A DNA stretch of 64,000 nt from Candidatus Marinamargulisbacteria bacterium (GCA_049889215.1 JBMHDV010000020.1:13279-77278), one strand, 5' to 3'; positions 25,525 to 46,725 are shown, numbered from the stretch's first letter. Numbers and translations are program-made. The notes: a model not told the origin generated them from the sequence alone.

Positions 25525-28500
25525 CTAAGAAATCCTAGCCTCATCTAAAATTTTCCGAACATCTTGATTAAATTGTTGTGGCGATTGATCCTTACAACCT
25601 TCCTTTACAAACTTTAATTGCTGTTTAAGATTTGGATGAACTTGTTCACCTCGACGTGCCGCATTAGTTACTTTCATATTTAACATTTGCTGAAAATTGG
25701 CATAGCCATTATCTGTTTGATCAACAAATAGGTTGGTCACTGAATTTGGATCAAGATCATGGGCTTTAAATAAATCGCGAACTGTTTTAGGACTTACTTT
25801 CTCCCCAACTGCTTCACGAATGCCCTCTTTTTTAATTTCCTCAACAAAACGCCCCTTTGGTTTAACATCATCTAAATCTTCTTTAATGGCTTTAAGCTTT
25901 TGACCCACATCACGATCCATGGGCGCATCAATAACGTCTTGTAAACGTTTCCCAAAGACACTCGTAAACGTCTCATTGGGCTCAAATTCATAGTTTTCCC
26001 CAGCTGGTTCCACCATAAAGTCACTCATACTAGCAACAATGTTATCTTTCAATGTCTTATGAATGTCTGATTTAGCTTGAGCATCAACACCTTGACTTGC
26101 ATCTTTAGCAGGCAGCGATGGCGCTTCATGTGTTGTCACCGTCGCACCATCTTTGGTTGGTAGCACTGGAGGATCAGAGTTAGGAACATTTCCATCCAAT
26201 GCATTAAATACAACCTTCAACGTTGCTCGAGCCTTTGCAGGTTTGGCTTCTTTTGCCACAGCTCCCATGAGTTTAGGCAGCAACGCATCCATGCTTTCTT
26301 TCATTTTTGGATCCGTTGCATTCGCCAAATCCTTCATTTCTTTAGCAACTTGGTTCGTTGAATCATCCGAAACGTTGGCTTTATCTGGTGATGAATAGGC
26401 ATTTTTAATTATCTTAGCCAACCCATCATCTCCTAACGATTTTGCAACAGCATTCAAATCTGATGCACTCACATAGCCCTGCTCAACCGCCTTAGCCAAT
26501 ACCTTTACTTGCGTACTATTCCCTTTTATATCCTTTGCAATACTAGCTGAATTAAAATGAGGTGAAGAAACTAATTTTGGGTTTTTCACATAAGACATAG
26601 CCGCCAATGTAAGATCTGTATCATCTGCCATATTTAAATGTGCACCTAGGTCAAATTCCTCATGTTTCCCAAATAGAAACTTACCAGGTTTTGTATTAGC
26701 AATCACATCACCTACTTTTTCAAGAAGGCTTTCATCATGGTTTCCACGCATAATACCAAGGGCTTGAGCCTCACCTGGCTTGCCGTTTTCTTGTAATAAT
26801 TTTCGACTTAATGCCAACCCAACATCCGGTTGTTTGCGGGATGATTTTACAATATTCGAATTCAAATCCTTTTTAAACTGATTGGTTTCCCAATTTGATG
26901 GTCCATTTGTTAGAGTGTCTGATAGAGCTTCTGACCTAGTCTTTAAATGCCCTTGCGGCTGATGCATAATGGCCGTTTGCAATAAATTCAATCGTTGGTC
27001 ATTTGATTTAATATTCGTAGACGAGGATGCAGCATCTTTGGTTGGCAGCTCTGGCGCAACATCTTCATTAACACCTCCAGGATTTTCATGCAATGAATCA
27101 ACCAAGCCAGTGGTCAAGTTGGTCATGGTCTCCTGCATTTTTCCAGGTACTCGGCTAAAGGTTGCATAGTTACGTAAATACGACGCACTATCTAACATTT
27201 TTTCCATGGTCCCTGTACTTAAATGGTCATTTTCAGCCATCCCTTTTAATTGATCCGCCCCCAACGAGCTTGAGTACGAAGCCAAGGTGTATGAGTTATC
27301 TGTGCTACCCAAGAATTTATCCAACGCCGCCTGATGTTTAGGGTTGGCTGCCATTCGATTCATGGACTTTGTTAACTCGGTTTGCCTGCTACTACGAATC
27401 GCTACCATTTCTGGTTGGTACCCTTGAAAGTTATCTGATTCTGGGTTAGTTGGGTCCATCGATAGTAAAAATCGATTCAATTGAGCCATTGTATTGCTAG
27501 GGTTTAACATCGACTTTTGTGAATTAAATCGACCCGAAAAGGTGTCATCAAACAACTGTTTTAAGCCAGGATCATCGGCAACGCGTTCAAACATCGCCCC
27601 CAAGATATTATCCTGAGTCGTTCGATCCTCCTCAGCCGGACCATCTCCTAAGTTTACAAATTTCTTTGCACTTTCAAGTCCTTTTTTTGCTGTTTCTAAA
27701 GTACTTAATGGTCTTGGATTTAGTTCTTTTAATGCATTCGAAAACTCCCCTGGATTCTTAACCAATAACTCACTCAATATTTCGGCTTTAACCTCCGTTG
27801 TTAATGTCTTGTCATCGATAATTCCCGCCATTTCGGCTTGCAATTTTTCTTTCGATAACGACGCGAGTTTTTCTGATTTGGAATTCACCACATACGAAGT
27901 CTGAGCCATTTTTGACATGCTCCCCGTTGCGTACATGGCCGTCTTTTTGGCCTTTCGTAACGTCGTTGCCAAGGTCGTGGATTGTGTGGACTTAGTTGCC
28001 CGGCAATGCAACGCAACTCGCGACTGCAATCGCTTAAAATCAGCTGGCGCCATATGATTGGCCAAAGTTCCAGCCGCACCATCTTGGGATGCAGGATCCA
28101 AGCCATACAACACATGCGCCATATGATCCAACGATCGATCAGACACCGGTAATTGGTGATCTGCACTCGTTAATAACGCCGCAACCGCGGTTTGACACAT
28201 GGTTTGATTTAAGCCCGCTTTTTGTGAATCTGTTAACGAGCTATCCTTCTGAATGGTTTGTTGCAATCCTCTTAACCGAGCCAGTTGAATCGCATTTGAA
28301 TTGGGCCCTTGAGAGCGAAAGGATACCGGCAACTGGTCAATTAAACCAGCCAAAAAGTCTTGTTTATTCACACCATCAGGCAAGGCACTCAACGCTGTTT
28401 CAACATCTGCTTGAAAGGCCAGTTGCTGTTGATCGATTTGCGAGCTTGAGACAATACCTGTCCACGGTGCTGACAACTGGTTCATAACGGTTTGTGCTAT

Positions 28501-46725: not shown

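Follow-up and report, generated by a model that had tools for sequence, protein, structure and literature searches.

The locus described here lies in a 64,000-nucleotide stretch of DNA (hereafter the window) from a Candidatus Marinamargulisbacteria bacterium (GCA_049889215.1, JBMHDV010000020.1:13279-77278), and contains a pair of very large genes. The larger is a minus-strand open reading frame (ORF) at 25525..46725 with 7,066 codons, a TTG start and no stops, the product of which we refer to as the giant; the other, also on the minus strand at 2054..15436, encodes a 4,460-aa paralogue. At the base composition of the gene about 480 stops would be expected and the probability of finding none is about 1e-216, and each of the remaining five frames of the stretch carries between 262 and 757; an earlier note, made from the sequence alone, had argued that an uninterrupted frame of 21.2 kb could not arise by chance, and this is borne out. 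The right flank of the window is housekeeping (secY-adk-map-...-rpoA-rplQ-truA-rplM-rpsI-serA), and the named relatives of its RpoA at 75-80% identity are all from 'Candidatus Margulisiibacteriota' or 'Candidatus Margulisbacteria'. The Margulisbacteria are the sister phylum of the Cyanobacteria.

Comparison with related strains bears on whether the gene is intact. Two ENA contigs (ERZ28548055 contig_22952_pilon and ERZ28548060 contig_29386_pilon) encode a protein identical in sequence to the 184-aa protein upstream of the giant, and match the window at 97.6% DNA identity between 36.8 and 57.4 kb. In both assemblies the giant region is called as a string of short genes, as would be expected if the frame were a product of misassembly or a series of decaying pseudogenes. 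However, the breaks are 1-2-nt indels, mostly in homopolymers and at positions that differ between the two assemblies; secY is split by the same type of error in one of them, and those indels that are common to both strains are multiples of 3. Over 3,270 comparable codons, third positions account for 176 of the 310 differences, and the ratio of nonsynonymous to synonymous differences per site (pN/pS) is 0.26 for the giant, with values of 0-0.29 for the other genes compared and 0-0.03 for serA and the FlgG-like gene described below. Together with the intact, collinear homologues present in independent assemblies, these observations refute the artefact or pseudogene reading, against which the earlier note had cautioned, as far as the sequence data reach, and we regard it as vanishingly improbable. 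Judged by these comparisons, the giant gene is real and intact and is under purifying selection, evolving faster than core genes. We note that the pilon-polished contigs from these two assemblies (L007-L009) contain many 1-2-nt homopolymer errors that break up secY, the giant gene and other genes, and that gene calls on them badly under-report giant proteins.

The position of the translation start had been left ambiguous between the TTG at 46725 and the first ATG, 69 codons downstream. Family members align with the giant from the first ~10 residues, with L65 and a block around aa 100-150 conserved, which excludes the ATG at codon 70 as the start. The choice among upstream codons is informed by the orthologue in a metagenomic contig (L012) in which the DNA of the start region, TGAAAGGGG(A/T)TCA(A/C)TTGAGGGG, is conserved, with proteins only ~36% identical. 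There the codon-1 TTG of the window is replaced by CTG, whereas the codon-6 TTG (46710) is kept, as is a Shine-Dalgarno-like AAAGGGG (46716..46722, minus strand) 5 nt upstream of it. Since codon 6 and its AAAGGGG are conserved and codon 1 is not, the start is most likely TTG 46710, giving a coding sequence at 25525..46710 (minus strand) and a product of 7,061 aa, rather than the 7,066 aa counted from TTG 46725.

The giant belongs to a previously undescribed family of giant proteins, limited to Margulisbacteria in the searches made. An exhaustive HMMER search with aa 1440-2639 against 1.84 billion representatives yielded 51 proteins, every one of them a giant or a fragment of a giant. Family members include a sister-strain fragment that is 94% identical to the giant (P0121), a 1,975-aa fragment on a 5.9-kb contig cut at both ends (P0122; 38% identity over aa 1299-2897), and dozens of shorter fragments with 30-68% identity. 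P0133 is complete at 7,287 aa, and P0151 is at least 6,683 aa long and is cut by its contig end; both are collinear with the giant over its first ~2,750-2,830 residues at ~24-28% identity, and between the remaining ~4,250 residues of the giant and the tails of P0133 and P0151 there is no detectable similarity. A metagenome scan provided the L012 giant, whose frame runs without a stop for at least 3,988 aa, at which point the fetched DNA ends; it is 35-38% identical to the window giant and collinear over aa 1-3480. The total lengths of the two complete members (7,066 and 7,287 aa) differ by 3%, their tails being ~4,240 and ~4,440 aa, and for these two proteins tail length seems to be better kept than tail sequence. 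One member comes from assembly GCA_902634825.1, which, at a guess from its accession, may be a marine single-cell genome. There is no relative of the giant in the viral contigs scanned, and in a scan of genome contigs the matches were confined to BTLCP genes of 200-240 aa that stand alone and are unrelated. A word-indexed protein search with aa 1-2500 and aa 4601-7066 gave no match; because the 94%-identical P0121 is present in the representative library this negative is unreliable and was not taken as a sign that the protein is an orphan.

The 4,460-aa neighbour, which the earlier note had called a paralogue and singled out for comparison, is truly paralogous to the giant over the N-terminal ~2,600 aa of the latter, to which it aligns in collinear blocks with 20-31% identity. 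It shares the core layout, with GDCED protease domains at C279 and C1473, and ends in an unrelated tail. Within that tail lies a ~27-aa tandem peptide repeat, EGPGITVEPGVFNTMTIEEGGFNPNRE, present three times and followed by a Ser/Pro/Gln-rich tract, and neither is related to the tail of the giant.

Each family member has a conserved N-terminal core of ~2,800 aa in which two Cys-His-Asp domains of the LapG/BTLCP type are set in long helical bundles. In the giant the core occupies aa ~1-2830 (38236..46710, minus strand) and is collinear with P0133, P0151, P0122, the L012 giant and the 4,460-aa paralogue; Phe, Trp and Tyr make up 11.6% of its residues. Protease domain 1 is followed by a long helical module at aa ~505-680, better conserved than any other part of the family proteins (...NKYVGQT.SGY.VYDYAR...NWIGSQ...), and then by a region of variable sequence, another helical module, a hydrophobic site (A), protease domain 2, and a small beta-rich domain at aa ~1919-1989 (40759..40971, minus strand) that is confident in an AlphaFold2 (AF2) model and has no fold match. 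Further helical modules, of the form '...Y..I..KLG' plus an S/T/G-rich loop, lead to two more hydrophobic sites, C and D. Very long helices mark the start of the following K/E-rich region in the first AF2 model, which extends to aa 2639, and in a fold search the predicted helical bundles resemble spectrin or syntaxin repeats, these being generic matches; a second AF2 model, of aa 1-900 from a four-row alignment, reached a pLDDT of 42.

Three or four hydrophobic segments or hairpins are present in the core of each family member. Site A of the giant (aa ~1560-1600; 41926..42048, minus strand) is weak, with transmembrane-like hydropathy at the collinear sites of homologues and two adjacent segments, forming a hairpin, only in P0133. 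Site C is a conserved hairpin at aa 2511-2560 (39046..39195, minus strand) with Kyte-Doolittle values of 2.05 and 1.58, and site D is a single segment at aa ~2789-2810 (38296..38361, minus strand) with a value of 1.86. Comparable segments recur at collinear positions in the L012 giant, P0133, P0151, P0122 and the paralogue, paired at some sites, and often exceed those of the giant in hydrophobicity. The N-terminus of the giant has no hydrophobic or Sec signal; we consider it plausible that the protein is exported.

Two Cys-His-Asp cores resembling TGc domains had been picked out by eye near the N-terminus, and both are present with intact triads. Domain 1 (aa ~215-345; 45691..46083, minus strand) contains C275, H318 and D333 in the arrangement GGGDCEDLA...GH...IDPT and is modelled by AF2 with pLDDT 70-87; domain 2 (aa ~1729-1899; 41029..41541, minus strand) contains C1783 in KQGDCEDFA...SH...IDLT. 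The Pfam Transglut_core family (PF01841) is matched above its gathering score of 23 bits by giant domain 2 (26.9 bits) and by domain 1 of the paralogue (26.2 bits), and giant domain 1, although missed by Pfam, aligns with all of the other protease domains of the family. In nine aligned domains from five proteins a Trp, the GDCED motif and the His are invariant; Cys and His are thus found in all nine, followed by the Asp in a (V/I/L)(I/L/M)D motif, and the acidic residues flanking the Cys are conserved.

Membership of the TGc superfamily therefore stands, and the domains can be placed more exactly as LapG/BTLCP-like proteases. A profile of the nine domains searched against the Protein Data Bank (PDB) finds LapG (4fgo, E 6e-7; 4u65_E, E 1.4e-5), with other TGc structures at only 0.1, and LapG is the closest solved relative both by sequence profile and by fold. 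The signature D.W.sP...i..ggGDCEDfA is common to the profile and LapG, and the nearest genomic relatives outside the family are the stand-alone BTLCP ORFs of 200-240 aa. The Peptidase_C93/BTLCP family itself (PF06035) is matched at 19.9 bits (E 6.7e-4) and its gathering score of 27 is not reached. Both domains are thus LapG-like and, as far as sequence can tell, would work as LapG does, in an architecture unlike that of the LapG family. LapG is a Ca2+-dependent periplasmic protease (PDB entry 4fgo is titled 'calcium-bound'), and its natural substrates are giant adhesins. A LapG-type cleavage site was sought and rejected as a candidate: there is one TAAG per paralogue, the positions are not collinear, and the site at aa 1594 of the giant is not conserved in the sister strain.

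The modular architecture first described for the protein is confirmed, in that the two TGc-fold domains are accompanied by a charged, helical region of great length and by a tract of low complexity. The stretch reported as a ~1300-aa K/E-rich coiled coil (aa 2558-3858; 35152..39054) is indeed rich in Ala (12.5%), Lys (12.2%) and Glu (9.7%) and helical by composition; as a coiled coil it was judged only by a crude heptad score, the strongest signal of which lies further on, at ~aa 3470-3860, 4260-4700 and 5150-5270. The Gly/Ser/Thr tract is apparent from composition at aa 3858-4065 (34531..35154, minus strand), with Gly 26%, Ala 14%, Thr 11.5% and Ser 11%. In-frame tandem repeats, also mentioned in the earlier note, exist and are minor, the best and only notable one being 51 bp repeated 2.2 times at 31571..31682; no larger internal repeats were found in the giant.

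The whole of the region beyond the core forms a variable, fast-evolving tail (aa ~2831-7066; 25528..38235, minus strand) that is charged and helical, coiled-coil or low-complexity in character, with 3.2% Phe, Trp and Tyr, seven Trp residues and no hydrophobic or transmembrane segments. Six copies of an eight-residue motif, [AP]PxLPx[KQ][DA], are scattered along it (spanning 26098..31641, minus strand, and starting two residues before aa 5031, 5048, 5633, 6560, 6855 and 6871), where 0.003 would be expected. Five of the six fit PxΦPxK, which is the class II SH3-ligand pattern and for which 0.33 would be expected. A looser pattern, [LPV]PxK[DE], is enriched in the P0133 tail as well, and is absent from P0151 and the paralogue.

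The genes next to the giant form a conserved neighbourhood. Directly upstream is a gene for a 184-aa acidic helical protein (46813..47367, minus strand), with orthologues of 185 aa in L010 (the P0151 contig) and 205 aa in L012; it is probably co-transcribed with the giant, and one might guess that its product is a chaperone. Beyond it lies a 'dark' cluster on the plus strand (47590..53815), consisting of three tandem genes for helical hairpins of 86-89 aa, genes of 99, 326, 268, 69 and 588 aa, a FlgG-like gene and a 116-aa gene. The FlgG-like protein (52581..53465, plus strand) is an axial protein of the FlgG/FlgE/FlgF family (TIGR03506, 96.5 bits against a threshold of 70.25). A 555-aa protein encoded at 53812..55479 on the minus strand travels with the locus, being 616 aa in L010 and 555 aa in L012.

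On both the P0133 contig and L010 the 616-aa gene comes first, followed by a gene of 185 or 212 aa that is read from the other strand. Next come the helical hairpins, either two or three of them and each 84-98 aa long, and then genes of ~200-360, 262-267, ~77 and ~590 aa; a FlgE/F/G-family member (~295 aa) and a ~130-aa gene precede the giant. The window and L012 contain the same genes with the block from the 184-aa gene and the hairpins through the FlgG-like gene to the 116-aa gene inverted, and in these the giant comes after the 184-aa gene. A single inversion would explain both gene orders. Synteny of the giant with the FlgG-like cluster is therefore conserved in four genomes, and the P0133 contig also has a second giant of at least 5,210 aa a few kilobases downstream, reproducing the layout of two giants with small genes between them that is seen in the window. 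Identity between the window and L010 falls from 62% for the 86-aa hairpins to 41% for both the FlgG-like and 268-aa proteins, 32% for the 588-aa protein and ~25% for the giant.

The hairpins, tandem paralogues of 86, 86 and 89 aa (47590..48468, plus strand) with a predicted G/S-rich loop, are conserved more strongly than any other gene of the locus. In size and shape they bring to mind the subunits of needles or filaments, a likeness that no sequence evidence supports, and they have no family match. PDB sequence or profile searches gave no significant match for the families of the 86-aa hairpins, the 588-aa protein and the 268-aa protein, or for the 771-aa protein considered below, and Pfam searches with the L010 orthologues of the cluster genes added nothing.

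The two giant genes of the window share a promoter-like motif, AAGTTTT-N12-ACGATA. One copy is 62 nt upstream of the start of the giant (46772..46796, minus strand) and the other 12 nt upstream of the ATG of the paralogue (15448..15472, minus strand); these are the only two matches on both strands of the 64-kb window, 0.00 being expected from 100 shuffles, and both stand directly upstream of a giant gene. The motif is conserved upstream of orthologues in L008, L009, L012 and L013. In L012 and L013 the equivalent place is occupied by AAGGTT-N14-CGATA, even though the proteins are only ~36% identical, and an 11-nt block upstream of the giant, AACGATACTCT, is identical in L012. The general layout, (A/G)CAAG(T/G)TT-N12-(A/T)ACGATA, resembles the FliA/sigma-28 consensus TAAAGTTT-N11-GCCGATAA (PMC7286023), and we regard the shared motif as a lead towards a FliA-type promoter and not as proof of one. 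A generic scan for sigma-70 promoters and terminators gave nothing above chance. An inverted repeat, ACTCT-AAT-AGGAGT (46763..46786, minus strand), lies within the AACGATACTCT block and overlaps the -10-like ACGATA; its L012 counterpart is ACTCT-TATT-AGAGT, and it could be an operator or an RNA hairpin. A looser third match to the promoter-like pattern, AAGTTTTCAATTAGACGTCGATA, is found inside the giant coding sequence (35322..35344, minus strand) and is probably fortuitous, an internal promoter being possible.

Among the other genes of the window, those between the two giants (15559..25509) encode proteins of 301, 287, 293, 192, 431, 451, 771 and 363 aa, all on the minus strand except the 192-aa ORF. 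They have no convincing Pfam match, and the observation that small hypothetical genes flank the giant on both sides holds. The Cys-rich proteins of 363, 451 and 431 aa (15559..16650, 18922..20277 and 20270..21565, minus strand) have several hydrophobic segments each and no family match, and two of the three have signal-anchor-like N-terminal parts; adjacent genes around them overlap at start and stop codons, as in an operon. The 771-aa protein (16614..18929, minus strand) has in aa ~565-771 a signature like that of OTU deubiquitinases, PGDGNCAFSAAALA around C572 and GQHWQCL at the C-terminus; the Pfam Peptidase_C65 (otubain) match has an E value of only 0.11 and the PDB search gave no match. 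If real, this signature would point to a eukaryotic host. The 192-aa ORF (21930..22508, plus strand) had a PPTase-like appearance by eye (SHTHH...GIDIE), which was rejected as it has no Pfam support; a gene annotated ACPS occurs at a similar place on the P0133 contig. Scans with PHROGs, PADLOC, Rfam and for tRNAs gave no matches, and exact-sequence look-ups of RpoA and the 301-aa protein found no entry. Third-position GC content is 0.30-0.42 in both giant genes and in the 'dark' genes beside them (2054..53815), compared with 0.19-0.27 for secY, rpoA and serA (55476..63459), and overall GC is 40-45% and 32-38%, respectively; codon usage, expression level or origin could cause this difference.

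The reading that we favour, tentatively and as something possible rather than probable, is that the giant is among the late cargo of a flagellar-type export apparatus, and that it inserts into membranes and processes itself. Both giant genes would be transcribed as 'late' genes from a sigma-28/FliA-like promoter, and their products would leave the cell independently of Sec through a flagellar-type III export apparatus, by a route passing through or along an axial structure made of the FlgG-like protein and the small helical-hairpin proteins. Once outside the cytoplasm, the hydrophobic hairpins could anchor the core in a membrane, either that of a target or the outer membrane of the cell itself. 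The LapG-like domains would be silent in the cytoplasm, because LapG is Ca2+-dependent, and would cut the polyprotein or a partner after export, with the long helical or disordered tail and its PxLPxK motifs serving as a tether or an interaction platform. The strongest clues to function, which the earlier note could not have drawn on, are the synteny with the FlgG-like cluster in four genomes and the sigma-28-like motif ahead of both giant genes and of orthologues. Also in favour are the missing N-terminal hydrophobic signal, the lack of any RTX, type I secretion system (T1SS) or other secretion domain in the Pfam search of the giant, the collinear hydrophobic segments of the family, and the flagellar genes listed for a studied Marinamargulisbacterium, given below.

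Several observations weigh against this scenario. The case for export is made only from context and from the absence of other signals. Apart from the FlgG-like gene, no gene of the cluster matches a flagellar or injectisome family, and there are no export-apparatus genes in the window. The two halves of the promoter-like motif agree with the FliA consensus at 6 of 8 and 5 of 8 positions with a spacer one base longer, L010 retains just the -10-like part, and AAGTTTT-N12-ACGATA was not found upstream of the operon containing the hairpin and FlgG-like genes. Only 12 nt separate the motif from the annotated ATG of the paralogue, which would leave almost no leader. The segments of the giant itself are moderately hydrophobic and could instead be buried helices, and cleavage of the giant by its own domains is a prediction; the TAAG at aa 1594 is not conserved even in the sister strain. 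Finally, a protein of 7,000 aa with folded protease domains would have to be unfolded to pass the ~2-nm channel of a type III secretion system (T3SS).

A bolder form of the same scenario, which we think rather unlikely, is that Margulisbacteria possess a flagellum-derived organelle of export or attachment, in which the sigma-28 'late' cargo is not flagellin and is instead a pair of proteins of 4,000-7,000 residues that insert into membranes, process themselves and carry LapG-like proteases. The FlgG-like protein and the tandem 86-aa hairpins would then form a new axial conduit or filament. Ca. Ruthmannia eludens, the one Marinamargulisbacterium that has been studied, is intracellular (PMC6784892); it inhabits vacuoles inside the epithelial cells of Trichoplax and is 'anchored' there by thin tubular structures, and such a conduit might correspond to the thin tubular connections between Ca. 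Ruthmannia and the host vacuole membrane. The RAST table for this organism lists FlhA, FliI, FliM, FlgG, FlgE and a flagellar sigma factor, and has no entry for flagellin, FliC, FliD, FliS, FlgK, FlgM or FliK. We use this comparison solely to note that the phylum has a case in which the export gate and sigma factor of a flagellum are present without a recognisable filament.

Among the alternatives to flagellar-type export, the first to be reckoned with, though not a likely one, is that the giant acts on the cell surface as a tether or adhesin and contains its own release protease, much as if LapA and LapG were fused in one chain. The core would anchor in the envelope, the tail would reach a partner cell or a surface, and the LapG-like domains would release the protein on a change in Ca2+ or another signal, with the adjoining flagellar-like genes reflecting only co-regulation of motility and attachment. 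It suits this alternative that LapG, whose substrates are giant adhesins, is the closest relative of both domains in sequence and fold, that the tail is long, low-complexity and variable in sequence and of similar length between members, and that Ruthmannia is anchored by tubular structures. Another Margulisbacterium, Termititenax, likewise attaches to partners. However, there are no Ig-like, cadherin or RTX repeats, no C-terminal T1SS signal, no T1SS genes nearby and no Sec signal; the tail is predicted to be helical or charged, whereas known adhesins have beta-rich repeat tails; and the LapG-type TAAG site is not conserved.

The protein had originally been likened to the toxins and effectors of intracellular bacteria without matching any of them. 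The absence of a match to a described family holds (TGc domains alone were recovered from Pfam, PHROGs, PADLOC and the PDB), and the organism is a Margulisbacterium rather than a demonstrated intracellular bacterium. A eukaryote-directed effector, delivered into a host cell by a host-associated bacterium, is a reading that we judge improbable. Its TGc domains would act on host proteins by deamidation, cross-linking or cleavage, and its PxΦPxK motifs would recruit SH3 proteins. The excess of these motifs (5 against 0.33 expected, or 6 against 0.003 in the extended form), the OTU-like GDGNCAF...HW signature of the neighbouring 771-aa protein (at a Pfam C65 E value of only 0.11), a pN/pS above that of housekeeping genes, and the presence of a Marinamargulisbacterium in placozoan cells all speak for it. 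They are set against the lack of any eukaryote-like domain above threshold, the absence of the proline motif from the paralogue and P0151, and the fact that LapG enzymes, the closest protease relatives, act on bacterial proteins; if GCA_902634825.1 is indeed from a marine single cell, the family is also not restricted to known symbionts.

We find it harder still to credit that the giant is not exported at all and is a cytoplasmic scaffold or cytoskeletal protein anchored in the inner membrane, with a flagellar link that is regulatory or positional. Hairpin-type segments leave both flanks on one side of the membrane and could hold all domains on the cytoplasmic face while coiled coils organise the cell; the generic likeness of the bundles to spectrin or syntaxin repeats, the scarcity of Cys and the missing signal peptide are all compatible with this. 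LapG-type proteases, however, are Ca2+-dependent and periplasmic, the giant evolves faster than housekeeping genes, and the conserved link to an axial-protein gene and the sigma-28-like motif suit export better.

It is very unlikely that the giant serves the neighbouring genes as a ruler, as a tape measure or as the inner scaffold of a very long axial structure that they build, comparable to FliK/YscP or a phage tape-measure protein, with length counting for more than sequence. The attractions of this idea are a gene order like that of subunit, chaperone and tape measure, a tail unconserved in sequence in proteins of similar total length (7,066 and 7,287 aa), and the thin tubular structures reported in Ruthmannia; many tape measures also have helical content, hydrophobic segments and an embedded hydrolase-type domain. 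Yet there is no T3S4/Flg_hook, PHROG or tape-measure match and no relative in viral contigs, the conserved part is N-terminal rather than C-terminal as in FliK/YscP, 7,000 aa at 1.5 Å per residue would measure ~1 µm, far beyond known rulers, the paralogues differ greatly in length (4,460 and 7,066 aa), and complete lengths are known for two members only.

Two surveys of giant genes place the Margulisbacteria among the phyla richest in proteins of more than 5,000 aa, which are unannotated (bioRxiv 10.1101/2023.11.21.568195; PMC11573180). In word searches of both texts the phylum is mentioned for this enrichment only and 'transglutaminase' occurs in neither, nor does 'flagell' in the first (bioRxiv 10.1101/2023.11.21.568195), the one searched for it; because of these absences we take the surveys not to describe the giant family, its LapG-like domains or its context. 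We found no literature report of a 7,066-aa protein. The LapG/TGc type of domain is already known, as is the broad concept of an exported giant that contains a protease. We have found no description of the family, of its architecture, of the limitation to Margulisbacteria that our searches show, or of its tie to a flagellar-type cluster and a promoter motif. One family of unannotated Margulisbacteria giants thereby gains an anatomy, comprising two LapG-type proteases, hydrophobic hairpins, a variable tail of ~4,000 aa and a paralogue, and both its conserved neighbourhood and the shared promoter-like motif point to a flagellar regulon. Should the flagellar link be true, this would be a new case of flagellar export repurposed for very large cargo other than flagellin, in the sister phylum of the Cyanobacteria, to which an intracellular symbiont of an animal among the simplest belongs, and the LapG family, with its separate enzymes of the periplasm, would come to include modules that act in cis within giant proteins.

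Comparison with known systems places these features in context. The giants of Omnitrophota, discussed with cell-wall degradation in those surveys (bioRxiv 10.1101/2023.11.21.568195; PMC11573180), are reported alongside unannotated Margulisbacteria proteins of more than 5,000 aa, which is where the likeness lies. No PADLOC model of anti-phage defence matches the giant, and for phage tape-measure families there is neither a PHROG match nor a relative in viral contigs, the flank of the locus being housekeeping chromosome. FliK and YscP carry a C-terminal T3S4 (Flg_hook) domain, whereas the giant has no such Pfam match and a C-terminus that is not conserved in the family. MARTX and the large clostridial toxins resemble the giant in being very large, modular and Sec-less, with an internal cysteine protease that may be switched by the environment. 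They differ in protease fold (CPD/C80 rather than TGc/LapG) and in genetic context, and Pfam and PDB sequence searches find in the giant no C80 domain, glucosyltransferase, RTX or CROP repeats, or effector modules.

Parallels are also found with flagellar late substrates such as flagellin, FlgK/L and FliD and with T3SS translocators and Inc-type hairpin proteins; on the side of the giant these are a motif resembling the FliA consensus, an adjacent axial-protein gene, the absence of a Sec signal, small acidic helical proteins encoded next door and hydrophobic hairpins that follow long helices. Pfam detects no Flg_bb_rod, Flagellin_N/C or translocator domains in the giant, which is 10-20 times larger and for which export is a proposal. 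LapG/BTLCP (PF06035, MEROPS C93; PDB 4fgo and 4u65) is the closest solved relative and shares the signature of the catalytic domain; it works on its own in the periplasm, as an enzyme of ~200 aa made with a signal peptide, whereas the giants carry two copies within chains of 4,500-7,300 aa. The chain described here lacks a signal peptide, does not reach the family gathering score of 27 bits, and has no conserved LapG-type cleavage site that we could find. The LapA-type RTX adhesins with LapG/LapD release are similar in that a giant protein with a long, variable, extended region is coupled to a LapG-type protease. The LapA-type adhesins have BIg, cadherin or RTX repeats together with a T1SS signal and genes, which Pfam does not detect in the giant and its neighbours, and the protease of LapA systems is encoded by a separate gene, whereas in the giant it is carried in cis.

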